NCBI GenBank assembly: GCA_036170915.1
Contig: JAVHQC010000006.1
Coordinates: 1 to 64,000, forward strand
Direction: 5' to 3'
Origin: Cyanobacteria bacterium auto_48_18
GTDB lineage: Bacteria > Cyanobacteriota > Vampirovibrionia > Obscuribacterales > Obscuribacteraceae
DNA: 64,000 bases
Positions 30,664 through 44,797 of the stretch are shown here, in pieces. How positions within the stretch are numbered: the stretch's first letter is position 1; every line of letters starts with the position of its first letter. The position numbers and the translations under genes were made by a program. The notes below the pieces were generated by a model that saw only the letters and a list, made by a program, of their open reading frames with translations, was not told the origin of the DNA and made no database searches.

Positions 30664-31974
30664 TTGGAAAATCAGGGCACCACAGTATATCGGGGCCATG
30701 TGATTACGCCCTTAAGTGCCAGCAAATACCTTGACTACATGGATGGGGCTCTCGTGGTAGATGCGTCCGGCAGTATTGTTGCCGTGGGTGAGTGGTCAGA
30801 GGTGAGCAACAGTGTGGCCGGAGCCACTGTGGTTAATCTCGGCCAACGCTTGATTTTGCCTGGCCTGGTAGATTTGCATTTGCATTTGCCCCAGGTTTCA
30901 CAAACCGGTCGATCTGGCGAACATCTTTTAGCCTGGCTCAATAAATATATTTTTCCAGCCGAGGCGCGTTTTTCAGACACCAGGCACGCTCGTAAGATTG
31001 CCAGCTGGTTTTTTGACGAACTTGCCCGCAACGGTACAACCTTAGCTGTAGTTTTCACCACTATTCACAAAGCGGCTGCCGATGCGGCTTTTGAAGTTGC
31101 GCTGGCTAAGGGAAGTCGTGTGATCATGGGCAAAGTGATGATGGATGCTAATTCGCCACCGGCTCTGACTGAAACTACTGAGGTTTCACTTCAAGAATCT
31201 GAGGAGTTGGCGCAAAAATGGCACGGCGCCGACAACGGCCGATTGCTCTATGCCTTTACCCCGCGTTTTGGTGTTACCTCCACCCCTGAGCTTTTAGCAG
31301 GCGTGGGGAGGCTTTTTGCCAAATATCCCGGCACATATGTGCACACTCATTTATCTGAAGCCAAAGAAGAAATTCAATTTGTCTCCAAACAGTTTCCGCA
31401 GGCGCGCAGCTACCTTGATGTTTACAGAAGTTTTGGCATCATTGGTGAGCGCACGGTGTTTGCCCATGCCATCCATTTAGATGATGACGATATCAAATGC
31501 GTCAAAGAGACTCGCAGCTCCCTGGCTCACTGTCCCAGTTCCAACTTCTTTCTCAAAAGCGGAGCCTTTCTTTATCAAAAAATTCGCGCCGCCGGCTGCC
31601 TGTTTGGTCTGGGCTCAGACGTAGCCGCTGGGCCGTCAATGAGCCTCTTTAACGTGATGAAAGACGCCAACTATATGCAGCCTGATATCTGGATTGAGCC
31701 GCCGGAGCTGCTTTTCCGGGCCACGTTGGCAGGTGCGCAGGCCGCTCATCTTGACCATCTCACTGGTTCACTTGCTGTCGGCAAAGAAGCTGATTTTATT
31801 GTGGTTGACCCCAGCCGAAAGAGCGGAATTGTTGATGATATCTTGAGTCAGCCCACCGATGAAATCCTTTCCAGCCTTGTGTTTTTGGGCGATGATCGCT
31901 TGATAGAGGCTACTTATGTCAGAGGTAAATGCATATTTCATTGCAAAAATGTAGATATGCTTGCAACCTGTTAG
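30664..31974 (+). CDS. guaD: Guanine deaminase
   Basis: PGLVDLHLHLPQ, TPRF, HTHLSE, HCPSSN and GSDVAAG motifs. Confidence 0.92.
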   Translation: MENQGTTVYRGHVITPLSASKYLDYMDGALVVDASGSIVAVGEWSEVSNSVAGATVVNLGQRLILPGLVDLHLHLPQVSQTGRSGEHLLAWLNKYIFPAEARFSDTRHARKIASWFFDELARNGTTLAVVFTTIHKAAADAAFEVALAKGSRVIMGKVMMDANSPPALTETTEVSLQESEELAQKWHGADNGRLLYAFTPRFGVTSTPELLAGVGRLFAKYPGTYVHTHLSEAKEEIQFVSKQFPQARSYLDVYRSFGIIGERTVFAHAIHLDDDDIKCVKETRSSLAHCPSSNFFLKSGAFLYQKIRAAGCLFGLGSDVAAGPSMSLFNVMKDANYMQPDIWIEPPELLFRATLAGAQAAHLDHLTGSLAVGKEADFIVVDPSRKSGIVDDILSQPTDEILSSLVFLGDDRLIEATYVRGKCIFHCKNVDMLATC

Positions 31975-32001
31975 GATCTTCGTGTTCCATGGAGTTAAAC
32001 A

Positions 32002-32589
32002 ATGTCTGGTCAGACTGACGTAGCAGCAAAGAAAATTGAGCGCGATAAAGAAGTTGAGTCGATTCGCACAATCTATTCACACGAACAGATTCAAAATCGA
32101 GTAGCCGAATTAGGCGCGCAAATTAGTCAAGATTATGCTGAACTGGAAAATCCGGTGGTAATCGGCGTAATGAAAGGGGCTTTTTGTTTTCTGGCTGACA
32201 TAGTCAGACAGATTGTCACACCTGATCCACTGCAAATTGAATTTGTGCGGTTGGCCAGCTACGGTAGTGCCACAGAGAGTTCAGGCGCGGTGCAGACACC
32301 ATATCTGGAGCTGCCAAATATTTCGCGTCGCAATATTATTGTGGTGGAAGATATCATTGATTCAGGCCGCACAGCCAAATTTTTCATGGACTATCTGCGC
32401 GATCAGTTTAATCCCAATACTTTAAAGATTGCAGTATTTCTCGATAAGCCTTCCCGTCGAGTTGTACCAATTAATGCCGATTATGTAGGCTTCAGCATCG
32501 AAGATTTGTTTGTCGTTGGTTACGGTTTAGACTATGCTGAAAAATATCGCGAGTTGCCTTACTTGGGCGAGTTGAAGTTAGCTAAATAA
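32002..32589 (+). CDS. hpt: Hypoxanthine phosphoribosyltransferase
   Basis: VEDIIDSGRT and FVVGYGLDY motifs. Confidence 0.95.
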   Translation: MSGQTDVAAKKIERDKEVESIRTIYSHEQIQNRVAELGAQISQDYAELENPVVIGVMKGAFCFLADIVRQIVTPDPLQIEFVRLASYGSATESSGAVQTPYLELPNISRRNIIVVEDIIDSGRTAKFFMDYLRDQFNPNTLKIAVFLDKPSRRVVPINADYVGFSIEDLFVVGYGLDYAEKYRELPYLGELKLAK

Positions 32590-32607
32590 CTTTGCATCGA
32601 GGATCAA

Positions 32608-33348
32608 TTGTCAGACCAGCCCGATGAAATAAAAGAAGAGCCTGTCAAAGCTCCTGAAGACAACGAAACTGCATCAACCGATGCAGACATTGTGATCGCA
32701 AATGATAAAGCGAAAATTCCAATTGATCCGCGCAGCAATTTGACCATTTTCGATCTTGCCGCTGGTGTGTTGATTTTGGCATTCTTGTCATTGTTTGCCA
32801 TTAATTGCTTTGTTGCCCATCTGGCCTCTACTTACAATGAAGATATGTGCGGAGTGGCTATTGGCTTAGCAGGACAAGCAGCTACCGAGGGCAAAGATAC
32901 TCTTGATGTTCGGCGCAGAGCCTTTGGTTTTATGGATAAATGCGGCCCTGGTGGATTTTTTGTGGAGCGGCCGGAACTTATAACTTTTTATGATGAGATC
33001 AAACCCGACTTCCGCCAGGTAACAATCGCTACGGCAACCAAAGTGCTGGTTCCTGCACCCTTTATTTGTGCCGATCGTAGCCGTTTTGAGAAAGATGGAA
33101 TGCATGTGATTTTCAAGCATGTTTATCAGTTTCAATTGAAAAATCCTAAAAATTGCAATTCGGGAAAAATCAAAATCAATCCCACTGGCAGAACATTTGA
33201 AATTAAGATGATTGACAATCCTATTCTCACCAAGCCTGTAGTAAACAAGAAAACCGATAAAGAGAAAACTGGCAAAGAGAAAACTGGCAAAGAGAAGACT
33301 GGCAAAGAGAAAAACCCTAAGCCAGCTTCTGGTTCTGGTGCCGGTTAA
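32608..33348 (+). CDS. Divergent TadE-like membrane-anchored protein
   Basis: Single TM, then CGVAIGLAGQA and VTIATATKVLVPAPF...FKHVYQF, parallel to the 1..793 protein; prepilin motif degenerate. Confidence 0.55.
   Translation: MSDQPDEIKEEPVKAPEDNETASTDADIVIANDKAKIPIDPRSNLTIFDLAAGVLILAFLSLFAINCFVAHLASTYNEDMCGVAIGLAGQAATEGKDTLDVRRRAFGFMDKCGPGGFFVERPELITFYDEIKPDFRQVTIATATKVLVPAPFICADRSRFEKDGMHVIFKHVYQFQLKNPKNCNSGKIKINPTGRTFEIKMIDNPILTKPVVNKKTDKEKTGKEKTGKEKTGKEKNPKPASGSGAG
33259..33313 (+). repeat. 15-bp tandem repeat, about 3.6 copies (KEKTG)
   Basis: AAAGAGAAAACTGGC repeated. Confidence 0.9.
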
Positions 33349-33352
33349 TTAA

Positions 33353-34315
33353 TTAGTGAACAGCAGGCACTGAGACCACATCTTTTTTGGAACCTGTCCA
33401 CATTTCAATTTCATGGAGTGGTGGCGGTACTGGTGCTACATTTTCTGAGGATGGTCCACGACTAGAAATGAATTCTGGCAGTGGAAGTGGTGGTGGTGCA
33501 ATAGCGCTCAGCGGTAAACGGTCACCACCTGTGGTGGTCGCTGTTTCTTTGATTGCTCGCGGATAAAGAGCGGTAACATCAACTGTGGCCACTGGGGTGT
33601 GGTCACTGCCGTTGCGCAGAGACAGATAGAGCTTGCTGGCAGAGAGTGCTTTTACAAGCTTCTGTGTGTCTTCAGGGCTAACAGCAACTGTGACAGATCC
33701 TGCTGGAGTAGCAGCTTGACCTTTGGCCTGGCGTTCGAACATTTGTCCTACTGCCACCACTTGTACATCTGACAGAATTGGTGCAACTTTGGTGTCAACA
33801 CCGGTGCCTGCCATTGCCAATATATCAACGTGGCTGTCAGGAGCGATGAATCCGGCTACACCGGAATTGCTGTCTACAGCAAAGGTTACAGCCCGCATTC
33901 CAGGCTTGACATGCGATTCAAAACCGAGGCTGATGCCTTGTGGTGCAATGTCGCGGCTCGAAAGTATTTGCCCCTGACTGATGCCATATTTGGTGGTTCG
34001 GCCGATGGCAATTGCTGAGTTGGTCAACGCATCTTGAGGGGCTCGATTGAGCTCCACAACTTTTTCTTCCAGGGCCTCGGCTGTAATTTGTTGCCCTTCA
34101 GCAATATCTTTGACTACATACACCACTTTGGTTTTGGCCATATTGTGCGCTTCTGCCTCAGCCAGGCGCTTTTTCATTTCGTTGTTGCGAGTTTCTTCAT
34201 TGCTTGTGAAACTAAAGGTTAAAACCACTGCCAGACCCACAATCATCACCAGCATGATTGCCGGGGGTGTGCGGGAGAGCATCAGTAAAAGTGTGCGCAA
34301 AGGATTAGCGGTCAT
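33353..34315 (-). CDS. cpaB: Flp pilus assembly protein CpaB/RcpC
   Basis: SAF domain (VVYVVKDIAEGQQIT), GMRAVT...GVAGFIAPDSHVDI and VTVAVSPED...LSLR. Start re-called at ATG 34315 after GGAGG. Confidence 0.9.
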   Translation of the reverse strand: MTANPLRTLLLMLSRTPPAIMLVMIVGLAVVLTFSFTSNEETRNNEMKKRLAEAEAHNMAKTKVVYVVKDIAEGQQITAEALEEKVVELNRAPQDALTNSAIAIGRTTKYGISQGQILSSRDIAPQGISLGFESHVKPGMRAVTFAVDSNSGVAGFIAPDSHVDILAMAGTGVDTKVAPILSDVQVVAVGQMFERQAKGQAATPAGSVTVAVSPEDTQKLVKALSASKLYLSLRNGSDHTPVATVDVTALYPRAIKETATTTGGDRLPLSAIAPPPLPLPEFISSRGPSSENVAPVPPPLHEIEMWTGSKKDVVSVPAVH

Positions 34316-34497
34316 TTGAAGACCTCCTGTGTTGACGGAAATTTGATATTTAGCCGGCCAACTGAGTTGCCCGCTCTCTTCATCTTGCCTGCTTGCACCT
34401 GAGGCGATAATAGGGAAAACCCTGAAATCGCAAATTGCCGTGTTACTTATAATTGCGCTACTCTTGTATGATGCTTTCCACGACTGAGGACTGTTGC

Positions 34498-35469
34498 ATG
34501 CTGCCACCTAAAGACGTGCCGGATGGACTTTCGGCTATGGAATATCAAAGATTGGCGATTCGCTATCAAATGCTCAAGTGGCCCAAGCAGATGGCTGCCA
34601 GCTCGCGCTATACCATGGCGGCAGCCGGTGACGCCGTGCCTGAAGAGACAAGACGAAAAGTCGGTGCGCTCATGGCCGCTCTTGAAATTACATTTACAGT
34701 TAATGATGCAGTCAACACTGTTAAAGGAACATTTGATGAGGCCGTGAGAATAGCTGGTTCTGAAGCTAGTAAAGTAATTGATCGCAATGCCACTCTCGCT
34801 AAAGCACGAAAGAGTGTCACCAATGCTTTTTCTCTAGCCAACGAATTGGCCTGTAGCGCTTTTAATAAAGTAGTGGAAGACGTAGTTTTGCCGCGCATTG
34901 GTTTGCCGGTGGACTATATGCCTGAAGGACTATCGGCGGCAGATTATTTAAAAATGGGATCGCGCTATGAGCAAATTGGTTTTGCTGAGCAGGCCCGCTC
35001 TGCTTTGCAAAAAGCCATTGCTCACGGTGGCGAAACTCAGGCGGCAAAACGTGCCAAAATTCGCCTGCGTACTCGTATTCCTAAAGACAAAGTTTCAAAC
35101 GATGCTACCCATCGCTATATTGATTCGCTTAAGTTATATTTGACGCAAGAATTGATTGATGCCAAAGCCAAGCTCGAACTTTTGATTAGAGAATACCCGC
35201 AGTTTGAATGGCCTTACATCCAGCTTGGGCACATATTGCTAACCGCAGGAGAGGTTGACCGTGCCTGCGATCTGGCATCAAAAGTGGTGCGACAAAATCC
35301 TAATATGATCAAGGGTTGGTTACTGCTTGCCACCATCGATATAATTTATTGGCAAATTCCAAAACTGGAAGAACACATCAAAAAAATCAGAGCCCTTGAT
35401 CCTGAAAGCCCTGAGTTGTCTACGTTTGAGCAGTTGCTTGAGCTGATTAATCAACAAGGCATGCGTTAG
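34498..35469 (+). CDS. TPR-containing protein
   Basis: Two GLSA.[DE]Y segments and TPR-like helices; ATG 34498 follows GAGGA. Confidence 0.75.
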   Translation: MLPPKDVPDGLSAMEYQRLAIRYQMLKWPKQMAASSRYTMAAAGDAVPEETRRKVGALMAALEITFTVNDAVNTVKGTFDEAVRIAGSEASKVIDRNATLAKARKSVTNAFSLANELACSAFNKVVEDVVLPRIGLPVDYMPEGLSAADYLKMGSRYEQIGFAEQARSALQKAIAHGGETQAAKRAKIRLRTRIPKDKVSNDATHRYIDSLKLYLTQELIDAKAKLELLIREYPQFEWPYIQLGHILLTAGEVDRACDLASKVVRQNPNMIKGWLLLATIDIIYWQIPKLEEHIKKIRALDPESPELSTFEQLLELINQQGMR

Positions 35470-35502
35470 ATTTCGCTTTAACGATGGTCGTCGGATCGGT
35501 CG

Positions 35503-35546
35503 GTAGTTCAGTAGTTCAGTAGGTCAGTAGTTCAGTAGTTCAGTAC
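35503..35546. repeat. Intergenic 8-bp tandem repeat (GTAGTTCA) x5
   Basis: GTAGTTCA GTAGTTCA GTAGGTCA GTAGTTCA GTAGTTCA GTAC, flanked by TCGGTCGGTA on both sides. Confidence 0.9.
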
Positions 35547-35564
35547 GTCGGTCGGTATTCAATA

Positions 35565-36704
35565 ATGCGCATCAGTCGATTGCAGGTTTATGGGTACAGA
35601 TCAATTAAAAGTATTGATTTGAAACTGGATGCCCTCAACGTTATCGCTGGAGCCAACGGTACAGGCAAAAGCAATCTCTATAGATCGCTATACATTCTCT
35701 GGGCCGCGGCCAGTGGCCAACTGGCCCAGGTTCTAGCTCAAGAAGGTGGTATGACTTCTGCCCTCTGGGCAGGCAAGCGCAGTAAACTGGATGACGCAGT
35801 TTTTCGCATACAAGTCAAATTGGATGATCTCACTTATAAATTTGAGTGTGGCTGCGTGCCCGCATCTGCTCGCGGCTTTATGAGTTATCCCGGATGGTTT
35901 AGCAATGATCCGGATATTAAAAAGGAAGAAGTAACCACTGATTTTCGTGCTCGCAAAATTCATTTGCTCAAGCGCAAGCGCGGGGCAATATCAGCACGCA
36001 ATATGGACGGCAGGCCAATAGAGTACCCTCTTACCGGCAGCGGCTGCGAATCTGTTTTGTCTTGTCTGCGTGAACCACACTTGTTTCCTGACCTTTCAGT
36101 GTTGCGACAGGAAATTCTAGGCTGGCGATTTTATCATCATTTTCGCACCGACTTAGCTTCGCCTCTGCGTCGTGAACAAATTCCTGTATTCACCCCGGTT
36201 TTAAGTCATGATGGTCACGACTTGGCCTCAGCTCTGGCTAGTATTATGGCTGCTGAAGGCGAAGTCAATTTGAAAAAGCATTTAAATAATGCCTTTCCAG
36301 GCGCAGAACTAAGTATTGACATGGAACCACGCACGGTGGCATTCACTTTACAAATGCCGGGCTTAAACAGACCATTTAATGCTCGTGAGCTCTCTGACGG
36401 AACGTTGCAATATTTGTGTTTGCTTGCAGCCCTTCTTACAGAGCGGCCGCCTAACTTGCTCGTCTTAAACGAACCAGAAACCAGTATGCATCCTGATCTT
36501 TACGGGCCCCTGGCTGAGCTCCTCGTAGATGCGAGTAAACGCTGTCAAATAGTTATTACTACTCACGCCAGGGAGCTGGCCGCTACCATTGAAAAATTGA
36601 GCGGCAACAAAACAATTCATTTGGAGAAAGACGATGGTGCCACCAGTATTGTTGGTGCGCGCCCATTCGATTTTTATGATGATGACGAAGATGATGAAGA
36701 CTAG
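35565..36704 (+). CDS. ABC/SMC-like ATPase (AAA_21/COG4637 type), copy 1
   Basis: GYRSI, Walker A GANGTGKS, signature LSDG, Walker B LVLNEPE and H-loop TTH. Confidence 0.9.
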   Translation: MRISRLQVYGYRSIKSIDLKLDALNVIAGANGTGKSNLYRSLYILWAAASGQLAQVLAQEGGMTSALWAGKRSKLDDAVFRIQVKLDDLTYKFECGCVPASARGFMSYPGWFSNDPDIKKEEVTTDFRARKIHLLKRKRGAISARNMDGRPIEYPLTGSGCESVLSCLREPHLFPDLSVLRQEILGWRFYHHFRTDLASPLRREQIPVFTPVLSHDGHDLASALASIMAAEGEVNLKKHLNNAFPGAELSIDMEPRTVAFTLQMPGLNRPFNARELSDGTLQYLCLLAALLTERPPNLLVLNEPETSMHPDLYGPLAELLVDASKRCQIVITTHARELAATIEKLSGNKTIHLEKDDGATSIVGARPFDFYDDDEDDED

Positions 36705-36715
36705 AAGGCAATCTT

Positions 36716-37858
36716 GTGGCAATCACTGATTTCAAAATTCAAGGCTACCGATCGATTAAAGATCTCTGGCTCAGGCTGTTGCCCATTAACGTCATAGTGG
36801 GACAAAACGGGACAGGCAAGAGCAATTTGTACAGGGCTATGTATCTACTTGCCTGCGCCGCCAGAGGAGAATTTGCCGAAGCGTTGGCTGAAGAAGGTGG
36901 TATTGCATCGGCGCTATGGGCGGGCGATTGGAGTAAAAACGATGAGATTTGCCTTTCTCTTTCGATGCGTACAGATAGGTACGAATACAATCTGCAGTGC
37001 GGCCCTGCGGGCAAAGTTGTCAGACCTGAATATTTCCGAAAGGATCCGGTGATTAAGGCGGAAGACGTTTTTAAGATTGAAAACGGACGAAAGAAGCGTT
37101 TGCTTTCTCGTCGCTTGAGAGTTGTCTCTGCTCGAAACGCCGCTGGTAAAGAAGTAGAGTACAGCACCAAAATTGGTGACAATGAATCCGTCCTTTCCGC
37201 TCTCAAAGATCCAATCAATTTTCCTGAATTATTTGGTTTGCGGGAAGAAATACTGGGCTGGCGCTTCTATCATGGTTTTCGCAAGGATGTAAACTCACCT
37301 TTGCGACTACCGCAAATTGGCGTGATGACTGCGGCCTTGAGCCATGATGGTCACGATTTGGCCGCTGTGCTTGCCAGTATCATAGAAGCTGGAGATCGAG
37401 ACTGCTTGGAAGCAAGCATCGACGAGGCTTTTCCAGGTGCAAGCCTCGGCATTGCACAGACTAAAGCTGGTTTGGCGCTATCCTTTTCACAGCCCGGTTT
37501 GCTCAGACCACTCAATGGAACCGAACTTTCAGACGGCACATTGCAATACCTCTGCCTTCTTGCTGCCTTGCTCAGTCTGTCGGCACCATCAGTGATTGTA
37601 TTGAACGAACCAGAAACAAGTTTGCATCCAAATCTAATTGAGCCCCTGGCCAAGCTGATTACTAAATGCGCTATGGATACACAAATCTGGATCACAACTC
37701 ATTCGCGGGAGCTGGCGGATCGCATCATGGACTTAAGTGGATATGAATCGTTTGAACTAACGAAATCGGCTGGTCAAACAAAGCTCGTAGGCGTGGGCCT
37801 GGGGGGCTTTCGTGAAGATTCTGAAGATTCTGAAGACGACAAAGGTGTAGCGCAGTGA
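36716..37858 (+). CDS. ABC/SMC-like ATPase (AAA_21/COG4637 type), copy 2
   Basis: GQNGTGKS, LSDGTLQYLCLLAALL, VLNEPETS and TTH motifs. Confidence 0.9.
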   Translation: MAITDFKIQGYRSIKDLWLRLLPINVIVGQNGTGKSNLYRAMYLLACAARGEFAEALAEEGGIASALWAGDWSKNDEICLSLSMRTDRYEYNLQCGPAGKVVRPEYFRKDPVIKAEDVFKIENGRKKRLLSRRLRVVSARNAAGKEVEYSTKIGDNESVLSALKDPINFPELFGLREEILGWRFYHGFRKDVNSPLRLPQIGVMTAALSHDGHDLAAVLASIIEAGDRDCLEASIDEAFPGASLGIAQTKAGLALSFSQPGLLRPLNGTELSDGTLQYLCLLAALLSLSAPSVIVLNEPETSLHPNLIEPLAKLITKCAMDTQIWITTHSRELADRIMDLSGYESFELTKSAGQTKLVGVGLGGFREDSEDSEDDKGVAQ

Positions 37859-39327
37859 ATTCACTTAATCGGCGAGAGTTCCTGGCGCTGGCCGGAGTTA
37901 CCCTAAGCAGTTTCCCCTGGCACGAAGCGCTGGCGAAGCGGCATGGAATACTAGTAAATGATGTGCATTCACAACTGAATGAGACTCAAGTGAGCGAGAT
38001 AGCTTATCCGCGAACAGTTGTCGACTTGCGTGGCATCGTTGACAGAACACGCAAAGCAAAGAAAGCGTTGTCTGTATGCGGCTCGCGTCACGCAGCTGGT
38101 GGTCAGCAATTTCTTAGTGACAGCGTACTTGTTGACACAACCAAGTTTGCACGGGTGCTCAACTTTGATAGTGACCTCGGTTTAATCACTGTTGAAAGCG
38201 GCATTCGCTGGGTGGAGTTGCAGGCCTGGATGGAGAGCCATCAATCGGATAGCGTTAAACTATGGGCTTTCAATCAAAAGCAAACCGGGCTTAGTGAACT
38301 GACCATTGGTGGCACTATTGGTGCCAATGCACATGGCCAGGGTCTTGCACTCAAGCCCTTCATCGGCGACATTGAGTCACTGCGTCTGCTCAACGCGGAA
38401 GGCGAGATTCTCAATTGCAGCAGAAATGAAAATGCCAGATTGTTCAGTCTGGTTGTGGGAGGTTATGGCCTTTTTGGGATAGTGCTTGATGTGACACTAA
38501 AGCTGGTGCCGCGGCAAAAAGTGCGCAGACTGGTAAGCATTATTCCAGTGAGTGAAATTGGCACCGCCCTGGATGCCGCGATCAAGCACGGATTTCGCTA
38601 TGGCCACTGCCAGCTCAATATAGATGAAACTTCGCCTGATTATCTAGCCAACGGCATATTTTGCAGCTATGAACCTGTAGATAATTCTACTGCCCTTGCC
38701 AGTACCGCTTATATTGCTGGTGAAAAATGGGTAGACATGCTGGAGCTGGCGCATAAAGACAAAGCCCAGGCTTTTAGTAATTATTCTAAGTTTTTTGCCA
38801 GCACCAATGGTTTTGTTAACTGGGCAGATGTCTGGCAGAATAGTTTCTACGCCGCCAATTATCATCAGATTGTCGATCAAAGATTGCTTGCTCCGGCTGC
38901 GAGCGAAGTGCTGAGTGAATTCTATGTGCCCATTGACCAGCTGCCGGTCTTCATTGCCAAAGCGCGTCAATATTTTATAAGTTTTGACATCAATATTATT
39001 TTCAGCACCGTCAGATTTATTCAAAAAGATGATGAAAGTTTTTTGCCTTGGGCCAGGAAAAATTATGCATGTGTGATTTTCAATTTGCATACCGTGCATT
39101 CGCAGATGCCCATAAAGAAAACCATGGATGCGCTTTCTTTTCTTACTGATTGCGCCATTGCCGCCTCGGGCAGCTTTTACCTGACATACCAGCACGTGGC
39201 AAACAAACAGCAAATTCTGTCCTGTTACCCCAGATTCGAAGAATTTTTAGCGGCCAAGCTAGAATTTGATTCTGCTGCGGTATTTCAAAGCGACTGGTAC
39301 CGTTGGCATTTGCAATTGTTTGCTTGA
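37855..39327 (+). CDS. Tat-exported FAD-binding oxidoreductase (VAO/ALO/DprE1-like)
   Basis: Twin-arginine NRREFL; GSRHAAGGQ, TIGGTIGANAHG and GGYGLFG motifs. Confidence 0.88.
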   Translation: MNSLNRREFLALAGVTLSSFPWHEALAKRHGILVNDVHSQLNETQVSEIAYPRTVVDLRGIVDRTRKAKKALSVCGSRHAAGGQQFLSDSVLVDTTKFARVLNFDSDLGLITVESGIRWVELQAWMESHQSDSVKLWAFNQKQTGLSELTIGGTIGANAHGQGLALKPFIGDIESLRLLNAEGEILNCSRNENARLFSLVVGGYGLFGIVLDVTLKLVPRQKVRRLVSIIPVSEIGTALDAAIKHGFRYGHCQLNIDETSPDYLANGIFCSYEPVDNSTALASTAYIAGEKWVDMLELAHKDKAQAFSNYSKFFASTNGFVNWADVWQNSFYAANYHQIVDQRLLAPAASEVLSEFYVPIDQLPVFIAKARQYFISFDINIIFSTVRFIQKDDESFLPWARKNYACVIFNLHTVHSQMPIKKTMDALSFLTDCAIAASGSFYLTYQHVANKQQILSCYPRFEEFLAAKLEFDSAAVFQSDWYRWHLQLFA

Positions 39328-39504
39328 CTCTTTCAAATACTAATTTTCTAGCGCGAATCCATTAGATTTGTTTCGAATTAATAGCATTCGCTCACACTTA
39401 TATACAGTGCTGGGAACAGTGAATAATCAATAGAAAATTCTTCTCCAGAACTTTGAACTTTTATTGGTCTTCCGACGTTTACATAAGAAACGGAGGAAAT
39501 ACTA

Positions 39505-40551
39505 ATGTTGGAACGTTTCGAAAATGACGGAGAAATTGAGAAAATTTGGCAGACAGTTTTGTCTATCGCACCAACCGATTCCGATGCTTTAGACATATTC
39601 TGTCAACACTGGAGCCAGAATGACCTTCTAAGATGTGGTTACTGTGGTAGTACTGATTTAAACCGTGCTCCAGGCGACCGTAGGTGTAAGTGTGACAACT
39701 GCGGTAAAAAAGTATGGGTCACTTCCGAGAAGCTTCTTGAACGTGCAGAACGCTTCCAGGCGTACCTGGCAGCAGCTCTAATTCGTGAAGCCGGCCTCTT
39801 TATCAGTGGAGCTGCATTTGCTCGGCTTACAGAAGTGCAGACTTCTACCGCTTACAACATATTGAGAAAGTTCAATATTGCGCTGGCTAATCAGTTACCA
39901 CAAGACGCAGAGGAAATTTCTGGAAGACTAATGAAACTGATAATCGCCAAGCGAACCTGCGAGACTCCCGCCCGGTTGCATCCATTCGCAGAGCAAGAAC
40001 TGATTGACGAGGAGATTTTTCAAAGTCGCTCTGAGCAAGATTGGGTCGCATCAGATTGTGCTCAGAACAAATCTGCTGAAGAGGAGCAGGATGATTTTGC
40101 ACGCAATACAGAATTGGTTCTGGGAGTGCTGTCGGCGGAAGTGGGAATGACGGCAGATGACGTTCAGTTGAAAACAGGTATTGCGATTGGAGTAGTCACT
40201 GGAAGTCTCTTTGTGCTTGAACTGAATGGCAAAGCTCGCAGGGTCCCAGGAGGTAAGTATTTCCTTTGTGTGGTATCGGCAGCAGATCAGTTTCAGGCCA
40301 GAGAAAATTCGCAGCTTGCAGAAAGTGTGAGGCTCGGGGCGATAAAATATCTGTCAGTCATTGGTGAGTACCTTCACCGTGTTGGTCGCAAAGGCCTTCA
40401 GCATCACCTTGCGGCAGTTTGGTGTGCTCTCGATCGGGCAACATGGGGGCCAGGCTCTCTGATCAGCCTGAGTGGAATGCATCCGCCAGTGCCTTATCGT
40501 CAGATGGTTGAGTATGTGTCGCCACCATACTTGAAAATTGTGATCTGTTAA
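39505..40551 (+). CDS. IS1595-transposase-derived Zn-ribbon/HTH protein with a DprA-type winged helix and no recognisable DDE core
   Basis: Strong SD GGAGG; CGYC..CDNC; ISGAAFARLTEVQTSTAYNILRK; SLFVLELNGKARRVPGGKY; YLHRVGRKGLQHHL. Confidence 0.7.
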   Translation: MLERFENDGEIEKIWQTVLSIAPTDSDALDIFCQHWSQNDLLRCGYCGSTDLNRAPGDRRCKCDNCGKKVWVTSEKLLERAERFQAYLAAALIREAGLFISGAAFARLTEVQTSTAYNILRKFNIALANQLPQDAEEISGRLMKLIIAKRTCETPARLHPFAEQELIDEEIFQSRSEQDWVASDCAQNKSAEEEQDDFARNTELVLGVLSAEVGMTADDVQLKTGIAIGVVTGSLFVLELNGKARRVPGGKYFLCVVSAADQFQARENSQLAESVRLGAIKYLSVIGEYLHRVGRKGLQHHLAAVWCALDRATWGPGSLISLSGMHPPVPYRQMVEYVSPPYLKIVIC

Positions 40552-40709
40552 CTCTGGGATTTTTAGGTATTTCGAATGGCGGATCGTGAGAGCGATTCGC
40601 TAGTTGTGCTGCAATGCTTTAGCTTTCGGGAGTAAATTATTTTCTGAAGATTAATCTTGATGCTTGGAAAAGGGTTTTTGGCCTCTTTGTGATCGATAAA
40701 AAGCTCGGA

Positions 40710-40779
40710 CGATATCGTCTGAAGTTTTTTGTAAGTTTGAACGATATCGGTTAAACGTTGGGATCTTTGACCGATATCG
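40710..40779. repeat. Three CGATATCG palindromes at 32- and 30-bp spacing
   Basis: Exact 8-mers at 40710, 40742 and 40772. Confidence 0.85.
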
Positions 40780-40867
40780 GCGAAAGTTTTCCGAGGTAAC
40801 ACCGCCTGCCAGCCAACCCTGCAAACGCCCCGCCCACAGCCACCCGCAACCAGAAGCATCTAACCAA

Positions 40868-41656
40868 CTAAGCACTTTTGATCATTCGAACGATTTCACG
40901 CACGTGATCTAAAAACTGACTGTCAGATGAGAGTTTAGCAATTGCATTTTGCCCTTCGCGTCTTAATGTCTCGTGTTCTGCTCGATTGTCTTGCGCCAAC
41001 GTGGTGTACTTTTGTGCCAGGTGTTCCAGGTCAATTTTTAAGCTACCTATAGTGCGATTCATATTTGATGGCAAGCTGTCCGGATTTTTTGGATCCACGG
41101 CTGTCGACAACTGCTCCAGTAAAAGCTCGAGTTTTTCTACTTTCTCGCGCAGCACCAGCACGTCTTCTCGCGGATATTTGAAAGTGTGCCTAATATCTCT
41201 TAGTCTTTGCCAGAGGTATTCATAAGCTCGAACTGATGGCCTCAGAATCGTTAGCAAAGCTGCAGCTGCTGCACCAAAATACCCCACTGGAGTAATGTGC
41301 GCCGCTGACAAATAGAACAGTGCTGCCGCAGAAACCAGATGCAGTCCGATGGCAATACTTAGCGATATGGCTTTAATTTTCCTGACATATTTTGCTTTTA
41401 TTTCGTCGACTGCAATGCCTAACTTGAGGCTGTTATTGGCGTCGTCTTGAACTGCCAGTGCCTCAAAGTAGACGTTCCATGGAGCGATAGTAATGGCGAG
41501 TAACCACCAGGCCGTTGCGATGGCGATAATCCAGTCGACCATTGAACCGCTAGGTATATTCAGCCATTTGAGCAAGCCAAATAGAAGTGCGGTCATAACC
41601 ATCATCATTAAGGTGGCATAGATAAAAGAGCCTAGTCCGCGTCCCAAAATAAACAC
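40868..41656 (-). CDS. Hypothetical membrane protein with C-terminal coiled coil
   Basis: Four TM helices followed by heptad-rich helices. Confidence 0.75.
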   Translation of the reverse strand: MFILGRGLGSFIYATLMMMVMTALLFGLLKWLNIPSGSMVDWIIAIATAWWLLAITIAPWNVYFEALAVQDDANNSLKLGIAVDEIKAKYVRKIKAISLSIAIGLHLVSAAALFYLSAAHITPVGYFGAAAAALLTILRPSVRAYEYLWQRLRDIRHTFKYPREDVLVLREKVEKLELLLEQLSTAVDPKNPDSLPSNMNRTIGSLKIDLEHLAQKYTTLAQDNRAEHETLRREGQNAIAKLSSDSQFLDHVREIVRMIKSA

Positions 41657-41753
41657 CTCCGCTTGCTTGATTTAGCATAGGCGGAGTCTCGTTCACTCAA
41701 TGACTAGACTGCTCACTTTGAAAACTGTTTGCTGCCTGCGTCTGCAAGACTAC

Positions 41754-43361
41754 TTAATTGGCTTCCGGAATTGAGGTCAGCTTGCCTAAAGTGTTGTAGA
41801 CGGTCACTGGTCCGAACAATTCCAGATCGTCTTTGATCTTTTTAGCGTCGCCCACCACAGCTACAACCAAATTATTTGAATCAATCAGTTTTCGCGCAGC
41901 TGTGCGCACGTCATCTACTTTAACTGCAGTTACTTTAGCCGCGTAAGTTTCCAGGAAATCATCAGGCAGATCGTAAAGCTTAGCTTCTAAAAGCCGCTGC
42001 GCCAGTCCACCTTGAGTTTCAAGGCCGAGCTGAAAGGAGCCGGCCAGATAGTTTTTAGCGCTGTTCAATTCGGCGTCGGTCACTTTAGTGGTGCGCATGC
42101 GGTCCAGTTCATAAAGAAATTCCTGCACTGATGGATTCGTCACTTCAGTGCGAACGTTGGCGCCGGCAAAGAACGTTCCTGGTTGCAAGCGTGCCGCCAT
42201 GCGGCTGTAAGCTCCATATGTATAACCTTTAGCTTCGCGTATATTGAGGAATAAGCGAGCGTGAGCTGCACCACCGAGAATTTGATTCATGACGATCATG
42301 GGGAAGTAATCCGGGTCACTTCTTTTCACTCCCACATTGCCAAGTTTGATAGATGTCTGTACGGAGCCCGGACGGTCCACCAGATAAAGTCTGCGTCCAG
42401 TTTGTTTTGGCAGCTGCGGTTGCACTACCTGAGCCACATCCGTGGCTTGCCACTGGGCACCGAATTTCTCATCGATTAGTTTGCGCATGGCTTCTTCTTT
42501 AAAGTCGCCAATCACAACTAAAACTGAACGATTTGGTTGATAGTGAGCTTTGTGGTAGGCCTCGATGTCTTTTCTTGTAATTTTATTGAGCGATTCTTCT
42601 GTGGCTGATACCACAGAATAAGGATGCTCGCCGAATAGCACTTTGCTGAAACGCTCTTCCACCAAAAAATCAGGACTGCCTCGCTTTATGGTCAATTCTT
42701 GAATTTGATTGACCTTTTTCAAGTTGAGCTCGTCTTCTGGAAAACTAGGATGCAGAAGCACGTCTGACAGTAAATCGAATAATCGGCCTGTGTAAGGTGA
42801 AAGTGCTGAGCCGCTCAAAATAGTGTAATCGTAGTCGATACTGGCTCCCAGCCCGCCGCCGATGAAGTCGATTTCAGAGGCGATTTCTTTGCTCTTTCTT
42901 GTGGTGGTTCCTTCAGTCAGTAAGTCGGCAGTCATGCTGGCCAGGCCAAGGTAATCTTTAGGCTCGTTAGAGCTACCTTCACGAAAACCAATATTGGCCG
43001 ATATGAATGGATAGCGATGATCTTCAACGAGCTGCACTTCCAGGCCGTTAGCTAGTTTAAAGCTAATAATTTTTGGCAGACTAAATGGTCTGGGTGCCGG
43101 CATCTTCGGAGCATCTTTGCGCCAGGCTTCGACAGCGGTGTTGGTAATTTGCGCACGTGACAGTGATTCTGAGGCTTTAGGAATTGCGGGCTGTTGCGGA
43201 GCAATCAATGCTTTGTTTGACTTGGCGCTTACTGTATTTGTAGTGGCTGCTTTAGTAGCTGCCTTAACCTCTGCTGCCAGGTTGACGGGTGTACCGGCAG
43301 CAAGTAAAAGCGAGCTTAATGCAAGGCGGAAGAGCTTTTCCATGCTTGATTTCATTTCCAT
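41754..43361 (-). CDS. M16 (pitrilysin) peptidase, non-catalytic subunit
   Basis: LANGL, no HxxEH, and RLFLNIREAKGYTYG motif. Confidence 0.9.
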   Translation of the reverse strand: MEMKSSMEKLFRLALSSLLLAAGTPVNLAAEVKAATKAATTNTVSAKSNKALIAPQQPAIPKASESLSRAQITNTAVEAWRKDAPKMPAPRPFSLPKIISFKLANGLEVQLVEDHRYPFISANIGFREGSSNEPKDYLGLASMTADLLTEGTTTRKSKEIASEIDFIGGGLGASIDYDYTILSGSALSPYTGRLFDLLSDVLLHPSFPEDELNLKKVNQIQELTIKRGSPDFLVEERFSKVLFGEHPYSVVSATEESLNKITRKDIEAYHKAHYQPNRSVLVVIGDFKEEAMRKLIDEKFGAQWQATDVAQVVQPQLPKQTGRRLYLVDRPGSVQTSIKLGNVGVKRSDPDYFPMIVMNQILGGAAHARLFLNIREAKGYTYGAYSRMAARLQPGTFFAGANVRTEVTNPSVQEFLYELDRMRTTKVTDAELNSAKNYLAGSFQLGLETQGGLAQRLLEAKLYDLPDDFLETYAAKVTAVKVDDVRTAARKLIDSNNLVVAVVGDAKKIKDDLELFGPVTVYNTLGKLTSIPEAN

Positions 43362-43372
43362 CTATTTCCTGT

Positions 43373-44797
43373 TTAGCCTTTGGGTGCGGGAATGACATCA
43401 ACGGTGGTTGCACCTTCTCTCGAGAAGATGTCGCCGGCAACTCGTTGAATGTCTTCTTTACTGACATTTAGATATGCTTCCACGTCTTTGTCGATCAAAG
43501 TGGGATCACCAAAGAAGCTGGCGTATTCAGCTAACATTTCTGCTCTGCTGAGTGACTTTTGCAGCGATGAGTGGCTGCTGGATGAGAACAGCGCGCGAAG
43601 AATTTGATTTTTTGCTTTCTGTAATTCAAAATCTGTAACCGGCGCAGCCTTGACTTTGTCGAGTTCGCTGAAAACTACTTCTCGTACTTTCTCTGGTGTG
43701 GAGCCGCTCTTATAAACCACAAAAGTTTCAAACAGCGAGGGGCCACGCCGCTCGTCGTAAGAGCAGCTAACTTGCAAGGCCACCTGATCTTCTTTAACTA
43801 AGCGTTGATAGAGCCTTGATGATTCGCCTGTGGAAAGAATTGTTTGCAATAAATTGAGGGCATAAAAATCTTTATCACGACGTGCAGGTGCTTTCCAGGC
43901 AACCCAGAAAGCCGGAGCCTGAGCCAGGCTATCGCTCACTTTTAAATATTTTGCTTTAGTTTGTTTTGGTTCGCTTAAATCTGGGCGCGTGGGTAGTGTT
44001 GCTTTCGGTATGGTGGCAAAATATTTTTCTACCAACTTTGTTGCGTCTTCACTGTTGAAGTCACCAACTATTGCCATGGTGGCATTATTGGGTGAATAGT
44101 AAGTATCAAAGAACTTGCGCACATCGGCGATTGACGAGGCTTCCAGGTCTTCAACCGAGCCGATTGGCGGATGCCCGTTGCTCCAGTTGTCGAATGCCAG
44201 TTCTTCTAATTTGATCGAGGCCGGTGCGTAAGGTTGATTATCAACTCGCATACGCTTTTCTTCTTTTACGGTCTCTAATTGATTAGCAAATTTTTCCGGC
44301 GTCACTTTGAGTGAACGCATGCGATCGGATTCCAACCACAAGGCAAGCTCTAATTGATTGCTCGGCAGTTTCTCATAATAGTTGGTGTAATCGGCATGGG
44401 TTGAGGCATTTAAGCTGCCGCCGGCACTTTCAATAAACTTAAAATGTTCCATTTTTGGAACGTTCTCAGAGCCTTGAAACATCATGTGTTCAAATAAATG
44501 GGCAAATCCTGAGCGGTTCTTGATCTCGTCTCGGGCGCCCACATCGTAGACAATTGCCACTGATACTACAGGCGCTGCATGATCTTCTGAGAGTACTACT
44601 CTCAGTCCGTTTGCCAATTTGAAATCTTTGGTCACCGGAATGAGTGGCTTCTTCATGGCAATGTCAACTTTACCCAGTGGCGCTGTACTTTGACCGAATG
44701 CCGCCAGCGGAGAGATCAGGTGATTGCTAACACAACTGAGTGCACTAAGCAGCACTATCCGTTTCTGTATCGATGATCCTGGTCCCAATAACTTCAT
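43373..44797 (-). CDS. M16 (pitrilysin) peptidase, catalytic subunit
   Basis: GFAHLFEHMMFQGS and LWLESDRM motifs. Start re-called near 44797-44809. Confidence 0.92.
   Translation of the reverse strand: MKLLGPGSSIQKRIVLLSALSCVSNHLISPLAAFGQSTAPLGKVDIAMKKPLIPVTKDFKLANGLRVVLSEDHAAPVVSVAIVYDVGARDEIKNRSGFAHLFEHMMFQGSENVPKMEHFKFIESAGGSLNASTHADYTNYYEKLPSNQLELALWLESDRMRSLKVTPEKFANQLETVKEEKRMRVDNQPYAPASIKLEELAFDNWSNGHPPIGSVEDLEASSIADVRKFFDTYYSPNNATMAIVGDFNSEDATKLVEKYFATIPKATLPTRPDLSEPKQTKAKYLKVSDSLAQAPAFWVAWKAPARRDKDFYALNLLQTILSTGESSRLYQRLVKEDQVALQVSCSYDERRGPSLFETFVVYKSGSTPEKVREVVFSELDKVKAAPVTDFELQKAKNQILRALFSSSSHSSLQKSLSRAEMLAEYASFFGDPTLIDKDVEAYLNVSKEDIQRVAGDIFSREGATTVDVIPAPKG

Follow-up and report, generated by a model that had tools for sequence, protein, structure and literature searches.

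How does a protein whose two ends resemble those of a transposase come to carry a winged helix of the DprA type between them, and what might it do in the cell? The question is raised by the gene at 39505-40551 (+) of a 64,000-nucleotide stretch of DNA, here called the window, from Cyanobacteria bacterium auto_48_18 (positions 1 to 64,000 of contig JAVHQC010000006.1; the genome is denoted G000). An initial annotation described the product as an IS1595 transposase scaffold with its catalytic core replaced by a DprA-type winged helix. By sequence comparison the protein is IS1595-derived and has no detectable DDE core. It belongs to a family of paralogs that are old, vertically inherited and under selection, and we regard its origin from a transposase and its domestication as very probable. 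As to its present role, we lean slightly towards a domesticated DNA-binding adaptor in a transformation or recombination pathway.

IS1595 ancestry and the missing catalytic core

The open reading frame (ORF) at 39505-40551 (+) is uninterrupted and encodes 348 amino acids (aa) followed by a stop codon. Sequence inspection places a Shine-Dalgarno sequence, GGAGG, at 39492-39496 (+), 8 nucleotides (nt) upstream of the ATG, in agreement with the earlier statement that the ORF is intact and has a strong ribosome-binding sequence. From the ORF, Pfam, hhalign and AlphaFold2 we assign to it an IS1595-derived, non-catalytic protein, whose parts follow one another on the + strand. The N-terminal module (aa 1-135, 39505-39909), recognised by hhalign and also called the head below, comprises a helical hairpin, a zinc ribbon and a helix-turn-helix (aa ∼ 84-128); the four cysteines of the ribbon, C44, C47, C63 and C66 (39634-39702), were located in the family alignment. 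It is followed by a family-specific connector (aa 136-166, 39910-40002; alignment consensus KRSRETPARxHPxAEQ) and by an acidic linker (aa 167-195, 40003-40089) that is weakly conserved as judged from column information and the predicted local distance difference test (pLDDT). The DprA-type winged helix (aa 196-256, 40090-40272) was assigned by Pfam (PF17782) and a structure match. The C-terminal module, or tail (aa 269-348, 40309-40548), is helical and, by hhalign, what remains of the IS1595 DDE domain's end; it carries the motif H-x-V/I-S/G-R-K-x-L-Q. The peptides quoted in the initial annotation are as stated (A22..., Y289...), apart from the winged-helix string, whose first residue is L204 and not residue 202.

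DprA_WH is the sole Pfam match of the window protein. The winged helix could thus be confirmed directly, whereas the IS1595 resemblance required tests at the level of the family. On its own the protein matched neither IS1595 model of Pfam, with a limit as loose as E ≤ 10, and scans against NCBIfam and PADLOC gave no meaningful match. When 1.84 billion representatives were scanned in full with HMMER, 645 clusters passed E ≤ 0.001, of which 482 also passed E ≤ 1e-10; lengths range over 250-428 aa among the best 150 of the 645 clusters. In an alignment of 103 members no variation is seen at C44, C47, C63 or R150, and C66 is conserved at 99%. R150, present in 103/103 sequences, belongs to the connector, which holds the most conserved motif of the family (K-R-S-R-E-T-P-A-R-x-H-P-x-A-E-Q). 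T154, H159, P160 and E163 of this motif are counted as invariant with R150; the other consensus motifs are W-x-T-A-G-T-F-F and F-H-G-I-S-R-K-Y-L-Q-x-Y-L-A.

Within this alignment the Pfam model Zn_ribbon_IS1595 (PF12760) matches 34 members (best E 8.9e-7), and the end of DDE_Tnp_IS1595 weakly matches 13 (best E 0.012). The weak DDE match covers profile positions ∼ 110-148 of 153 and directly follows the winged helix in all six members inspected; one further member is matched at profile positions 90-146. Ten real IS1595 transposases encoded in genomes of the same class were compared with the family by hhalign, profile against profile. The N-terminus aligns over 117 columns (Prob 99.8, E 5.7e-28) and aa ∼ 269-338 align with transposase columns 238-305 of 312 (Prob 96.4, E 1e-9). 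These results confirm, at family level, the claim that the N- and C-terminal parts are those of IS1595. The family profile likewise matches a real IS1595 ORF in genome G018 at both termini (C-terminus E 2.4e-6), and the N-terminus of a true transposase of 304 aa in the genus-mate G003 (E 1e-21). Beyond the family's own clusters, neighbours in the ESM Atlas carry IS1595 domains with scores of 0.78-0.84, which we treat as leads only. The 304-aa G003 protein is the closest catalytic relative at hand (PF12762, 82.9 bits; PF12760, 51.2 bits). The G003 IS1595 ORF is found at three places with equal score (C1:1653583-1653933, 3105495-3105845 and 2101057-2101407).

The middle of the protein is different. 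No similarity to the transposase core was detected by hhalign for aa 130-200 (Prob 0.07), and in the alignment with the 10 transposases neither their 'VExDE' segment nor their two invariant Asp residues have a counterpart in the family. It had been noted before that the 'VE.DE' and DDE acidic residues are not recognisable, and this holds. An intact RNase H fold with a DDE triad, the finding that would have marked an ordinary transposase, is present neither in the sequence comparison nor in the structural models.

AlphaFold2, given the 103-row alignment, predicts the full protein with a pLDDT of 92.4 and a predicted template modelling score (pTM) of 0.79. The model runs from the helical hairpin through the zinc ribbon, the helix-turn-helix and a structured connector (pLDDT 94-97) to the acidic linker, where pLDDT drops to 70-87 and column information is low, and on to the winged helix and helical tail. 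Its strands are all short (E52-71, E136-139, E244-254 and E342-345), and in the model they belong, by our assignment, to the zinc ribbon, the connector (one short strand), the wing of the winged helix and the C-terminal end. In natural relatives of 271-305 aa the winged helix is missing and a linker joins head to tail. One of these, P0042, is modelled as one compact domain (pLDDT 91.5, pTM 0.87, strand E59-70). Neither the full-length model nor this one contains a multi-stranded or RNase-H-like sheet. The predictions thus suggest that the head and the helices of the DDE end fold together as one compact, mainly helical module. The view that the winged helix replaces the core therefore needs qualification: it does sit where the core is gone, but as an optional insert in the linker that is absent from the 271-305-aa relatives.

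Searches for solved relatives picked out the winged helix. The whole model gave no Foldseek match in the PDB at E ≤ 0.001; the VIA matches were confined to the winged helix (Z ∼ 10 for aa 193-267), DprA (3maj) being among them (Z 9.1, root-mean-square deviation (rmsd) 1.8, 58 residues aligned). The model without the winged helix gave no Foldseek match. Two VIA candidates for it, the ROQ domain of Roquin (Z 5.2, rmsd 4.6, 96 aligned) and the DDE transposase ISCth4 (Z 3.2, rmsd 6.9), were rejected as lying within noise. No solved structure could thus be named as a relative of the head-plus-tail module, which is not proof of a new fold.

Inheritance and selection of the paralogs

The genome of the window (4.94 Mb, 39 contigs) contains nine full-length copies and one short copy of the gene, counts that are lower bounds because the genome is 86% complete. 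They are 23-49% identical and all are intact. The short tenth paralog (255 aa, C23:36738-37505 (-)) sits on a very long branch; it retains the head and the winged helix and has the promoter motif described below, but most of its tail module is gone. No recurring neighbouring gene was found among the ten paralog loci, where comparison gave only three weak pairwise similarities, and a repeat search around the window gene revealed no terminal inverted or direct repeats.

The window is collinear with locus L021 across 31522-43591 at 88-90% nucleotide identity, and the window gene and its syntenic orthologue there differ with a ratio of non-synonymous to synonymous substitution rates (dN/dS) of 0.091 (dS 0.45), against 0.015-0.175 for the neighbouring genes. 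The L021 and G006 orthologues give identical figures and were counted once. A quick IQ-TREE phylogeny (LG+G4) was calculated from 47 proteins of the genomes G000, G003, G006, G007, G016 and G019, after removal of one duplicate transposase row and with the true G003 transposase as outgroup. All nine full-length G000 copies pair 1:1 with copies of the sister genome G006 (Shimodaira-Hasegawa-like approximate likelihood ratio test, SH-aLRT, 98-100), and all nine G003 copies pair with G007 copies (support 100); the tree has long stems and short tips. The copies without the winged helix form one clade of 10 rows (support 83) nested among winged-helix copies. Because of this nesting we conclude that the winged helix was lost secondarily. 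The members of the clade (271-305 aa; L050-L054 in G003 and L061-L065 in G007) keep head, connector, tail and promoter motif.

Purifying selection is seen throughout. In 18/18 orthologue pairs dN/dS is 0.09-0.23, far from the value near 1 that was to be expected of a decaying remnant. Pooled by domain it is 0.126 for the head, 0.115 for the connector, 0.225 for the winged helix and 0.138 for the tail, and 0.39-0.49 for the linkers (0.39 for the acidic linker, aa 167-195). The absence of a core, the intact frame and the low ratio against the syntenic orthologue support the description of the gene as a domesticated, non-catalytic derivative.

Relatives of the protein come from sources named 'uncultured cyanobacterium', Candidatus Melainabacteria and Candidatus Obscuribacterales, which points to non-photosynthetic relatives of cyanobacteria, where the organism of the window presumably belongs too. 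Strong matches (best E ≤ 1e-87) occur in 21 of the 24 other genomes of its taxonomic family (f1), and each genus-mate has 7-20 profile matches, with an internal stop in only one of the matches listed. In the class's other families single weak matches are found; in the four genomes inspected (4/4) they involve the winged-helix columns only, in frames of ∼ 375-416 aa, and the G000 equivalent of such a match is dprA. Among 300 other genomes sampled from the phylum there was no match at E ≤ 1e-20. Thus the paralogs are old, vertically inherited and under selection, and the gene family does not behave as a mobile element. Counting the paralogs and comparing their flanks had been proposed as a check: the count yielded ten copies in G000, and shared ends or flanks were not found.

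The winged helix, the shared motif and a proposed role

One clue to function is the winged helix. Pfam places DprA_WH (PF17782) at aa 204-250 with E 3.8e-6 and 27.3 bits, above the cut-off of 22.9, and the model matches 101/103 family members, so the earlier assignment of this domain stands. Over 35 aa the winged helix shares 43% identity with the C-terminal end of the genome's own DprA. G000 encodes comM as well as dprA, the latter with a PF17782 tail of its own; this true DprA lies elsewhere, on contig C26 (243 bits). The DprA Rossmann domain, DNA_processg_A (PF02481), was not found in the window protein at E ≤ 10. According to a preprint, the C-terminal winged helix of DprA from Gram-negative bacteria binds the ComM helicase directly (bioRxiv 10.1101/2024.10.21.619469; PMC12012524) and recruits it for branch migration in natural transformation (bioRxiv 10.1101/2024.10.21.619469). 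In the same text the winged helix of H. pylori DprA is reported not to bind double-stranded DNA (bioRxiv 10.1101/2024.10.21.619469). The initial annotation counted three DNA-binding modules; this does not agree with a domain reported to dock ComM and not to bind double-stranded DNA, and for which ComM docking is predicted here.

Complex prediction was carried out in three runs with G000 ComM (517 aa, 42-row alignment) and aa 188-262 of the window protein (103 rows). The complex scored 0.79 in each of the 3 runs and the best of 3 controls 0.18. The mark used for such scores is reached by 116/157 solved complexes and 2/215 mismatched pairs, counts that are only rough here because custom alignments were used. 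The runs have at least 90% of contacts in common, with a partner pLDDT of at least 84, and place helix 228-237 (together with 216-221 and 247-250) against ComM residues 203-209 and 489-508. PDB sequence relatives of DprA are all titled DprA or DprA-like, and none is titled as a complex with ComM. On the strength of these models we consider it an even question whether the winged helix of the window protein docks ComM.

The second clue lies upstream. Sequence inspection revealed a promoter-like motif, TTGAAC-N17-CGTTTACA, at 39453-39483 (+); its core, TTGAAC-N17-CGTT, occupies 39453-39479 and is 25 nt from the ATG. The strict core precedes 9/10 paralogs in G000, and the tenth (on C4) has a variant. 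It is usually extended to the longer form and ends 20-32 nt before the start codon. G000 has 31 exact matches at spacing 17, against 5-14 for any of the remaining spacings between 12 and 23. Of the 36 family genes in five other genomes, 28 (28/36) have the strict motif upstream and 34 (34/36) a relaxed form. In the same five-genome test it was found before none of the true IS1595 transposase genes of G003 (0/2).

The motif is also found in G000 20-69 nt upstream of genes outside the family. These are comEC (PF03772, 165 bits), a gene for a ComF-like protein (TIGR00201, 111 bits, below cut-off), comM/yifB (TIGR00368, 595 bits), yraN (UPF0102, 71 bits), xseA, the gene for a sigma factor of the extracytoplasmic function (ECF) type (TIGR02937, 118 bits; C23:45720-46352), and two paralogous DUF6088/AbiEi_4-like genes of 215-216 aa (C15:59451-60098 and C22:30502-31146). 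Two genes for LTXXQ periplasmic proteins also lie downstream of the motif, 43 and 101 nt away. The motif positions for the com, yraN, xseA and sigma-factor set are C22:342204, C33:114731, C29:102882, C35:269803, C22:322673 and C23:45661. In the reference list of the DprA report, YraN is named as a helicase-associated nuclease of transformation (bioRxiv 10.1101/2024.10.21.619469). The association extends beyond this genome: comM has the motif 48 nt upstream in G003 and 50 nt upstream in G019, which belongs to a different genus, and it is present before comEC in G003. In G019 the bare pattern is clearly enriched (16 matches, with 1 for a reversed control). We take the GAAC/CGT pattern to be typical of ECF sigma promoters, so that the motif looks like one of this type, and its presence before the ECF sigma gene itself would presumably fit autoregulation. 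It is likely, in our judgement, that the window gene belongs to this shared-promoter set. The set as a whole suggests sigma-controlled natural competence in an uncultured lineage, with a candidate ECF-sigma regulon.

Taken together, these observations are consistent with a model in which the gene is transcribed from the promoter-like motif, probably of ECF-sigma type, that it shares with comEC, the comF-like gene, comM, yraN, xseA and the ECF sigma gene. The head would recognise particular DNA sequences. This ability would go back to the transposase's end-binding domain, and the paralogs would have diverged in it. From its homology, DNA binding by the head is to be expected with fair assurance. 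The winged helix would dock the ComM branch-migration helicase, as that of DprA does. The protein may then bring ComM to chosen DNA sites, or withhold it, during DNA uptake and recombination. A DNA-reading head and a ComM-docking winged helix would together make it a sequence-reading adaptor. We speculate further that the 9-20 paralogs could constitute a repertoire of DNA readers, co-induced with the uptake machinery, each with a sequence of its own and each steering ComM to or from its site; the sequences recognised might be the ends of IS1595-like elements in incoming DNA. This extension we think quite unlikely. If true, it would amount to sequence-programmable transformation, for example a surveillance that chooses which foreign segments are recombined into the chromosome.

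Several points weigh against the adaptor model. The complex score may only mirror the likeness to the winged helix of DprA, and a pass in the complex test is frequent among near relatives of a genuine partner; the prediction therefore does not show binding by the window copy. Residues at the predicted interface are no better conserved than other winged-helix residues (1.70 versus 1.67 bits), and the winged helix evolves faster than head and tail (dN/dS 0.225 versus 0.13). A whole clade has lost the winged helix and kept the promoter motif, so the core function cannot depend on ComM. The promoter was recognised by its consensus alone, and DNA binding by the head is carried over from homology. 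The motif itself is unevenly distributed: comEC of G019 has no strict copy, dprA has none within 250 nt upstream, the copy at recA is 353 nt away, and the enrichment in G003 is modest (37 matches against 25 for the reversed control). The copy numbers in G000, as lower bounds, call for the same caution.

The persistence of copies without a winged helix is one of the facts that would suit a lineage-specific family of transcription factors, in which head and winged helix bind DNA, or the winged helix dimerises, and each protein serves targets of its own with no link to ComM. Such proteins could well have a zinc-ribbon/helix-turn-helix head. The winged helix matches many DNA-binding domains of the IclR/MarR type (Z 9-10), the MarR, TrmB and ArsR models of Pfam are weakly matched in 12-23 of the 103 members, and the family is large and diverged, its genes solitary and without conserved neighbours. 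By sequence, however, the winged helix is specifically of the DprA type and resembles the tail of the genome's own DprA, a domain that in the report cited above binds ComM and not double-stranded DNA. One motif common to all paralogs and to comM, comEC, the comF-like gene and yraN does not look like individual regulation, and the docking prediction for ComM exceeded its controls. We therefore hold a family of transcription factors to be unlikely, though it deserves to be kept in view.

A second alternative is that the protein inhibits transposition, or serves immunity, as a truncated transposase that occupies the ends of IS1595-type elements and so blocks them. The truncated inhibitor proteins of Tn5 and IS1 are the analogue. 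The parts expected to bind element ends are indeed retained and catalysis is gone, but the genes lie neither inside nor beside insertion sequence copies and have persisted for long as 1:1 orthologues. Real IS1595 elements do occur within the genus, with at least 3 copies of equal score in G003, and no DDE_Tnp_IS1595 match was found in G000, which has ten family copies and is 86% complete. Yet G003 has nine family genes and multi-copy IS1595 at the same time, and the frequency of IS1595 in f1 (8/30 genomes) is not clearly below that in the sister families (7/30 and 8/17). An inhibitor would also leave the DprA winged helix and the promoter shared with com genes unexplained, and we think this role very unlikely.

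Transposase ancestry and the presence of several copies in every examined genome of the genus (the 7-20 profile matches) might point to a unit that is still mobile, either as an unconventional transposase or as non-autonomous cargo moved in trans, the latter having been one of the initial proposals. Its copies would hardly be expected to be just 23-49% identical, to lack terminal inverted repeats and common flanks, and to stand in 1:1 orthology, the window locus in synteny with L021; the protein has neither an acidic triad nor an RNase H-like sheet, and the true IS1595 genes of G003 do not share the family's promoter motif. The cargo proposal in particular fails on the missing terminal repeats and shared flanks and on the 1:1 orthologues. 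The inheritance and selection data given above contradict a mobile unit, which we find barely credible, and equally a decaying remnant without function: the catalytic domain is lost, but frames are intact in the genomes examined (an internal stop in one listed match), selection acts on all 18 pairs, the promoter motif and Shine-Dalgarno sequence are conserved and the models are very confident, so that the probability of a mere remnant is close to nil.

Adjacent sequences and related systems

Downstream of the gene, a repeat search identified two hairpin-forming palindromes at 40698-40788 with three CGATATCG cores 30-32 nt apart. They lie between the convergent 3' ends of the window gene and of an ORF at 40868-41656 (-). 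This is the only cluster of at least three CGATATCG within 150 bp in G000; beside the other paralogs no CGATATCG was found, except for a single copy near C6:243615. The cluster may serve as a bidirectional terminator or as an array for protein binding. The convergent ORF encodes 262 aa and has a dN/dS of 0.063 against L021, from which we conclude that it is a real gene; no Pfam family matches it above threshold, SLATT_fungal giving a weak match (E 0.0071). Upstream, at 35565-37858 (+), are two tandem paralogous AAA_21/AAA_15 ATPases that are 50% identical. In PADLOC both find their best match in HEC-01A, a candidate defence ATPase (E 7.5e-50 and 3.7e-46), and the second has diverged much faster than its neighbours from its L021 orthologue (83% amino acid identity, dS 0.99).

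What sets the family apart is the conjunction of three unusual features. The core has been cleanly removed, leaving both ends as one folded module; a protein-docking domain has been captured from the DprA of the host itself; and the family has expanded to some ten to twenty old paralogs that have a promoter motif in common with comEC, the comF-like gene, comM, yraN and xseA. The initial annotation knew of no described family like this, and a literature search likewise gave no description and found no work on a bacterial IS1595 derivative. For the part of IS1595 transposases outside the catalytic core, the family offers a confidently predicted fold to which no solved structure is clearly related. 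Should the winged helix dock ComM, the family would provide the first sequence-specific adaptors of a branch-migration helicase, and a way into natural transformation among those relatives of cyanobacteria that are uncultured and non-photosynthetic.

The nearest known systems are the IS1595 (ISXO2-like) DDE transposases, defined by PF12760 and PF12762. They share with the family the helical hairpin, the four-Cys zinc ribbon, the helix-turn-helix and the terminal helices with H-x-V-S-x-K-x-L-Q, all in identical order. The RNase-H-like core, the 'VExDE' segment and the invariant Asp residues are theirs and are not found in the family, whereas the DprA-type winged helix, the connector motif and the promoter motif (the last in comparison with the true IS1595 genes of the genus) are found only in the family. 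Unlike IS1595 elements, the family has neither terminal repeats nor near-identical copies and is inherited vertically under purifying selection.

DprA is related through one domain. The two winged helices belong to the same domain family by the Pfam, identity and 3maj criteria given above, and that of the window protein is predicted to dock ComM via the same helix region. DprA, however, combines a Rossmann domain and, at its C-terminus, a winged helix; in the window protein the Rossmann domain is absent, and the winged helix is internal, fused to a transposase-derived module with putative DNA-binding function and dispensable in one clade.

To our knowledge, well-documented domesticated transposases are rare in bacteria. 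Truncated or domesticated derivatives include the inhibitors Inh of Tn5 and InsA of IS1, the TnpB-derived TldR regulators and the eukaryotic transcription factors derived from transposases. All follow the principle proposed here, in that DNA recognition is kept, catalysis is lost and the product is put to use by the host. The present family differs from these derivatives in having IS1595 as its ancestor, in having captured a domain of a host recombination protein, and in comprising 9-20 paralogs per genome that share one motif.

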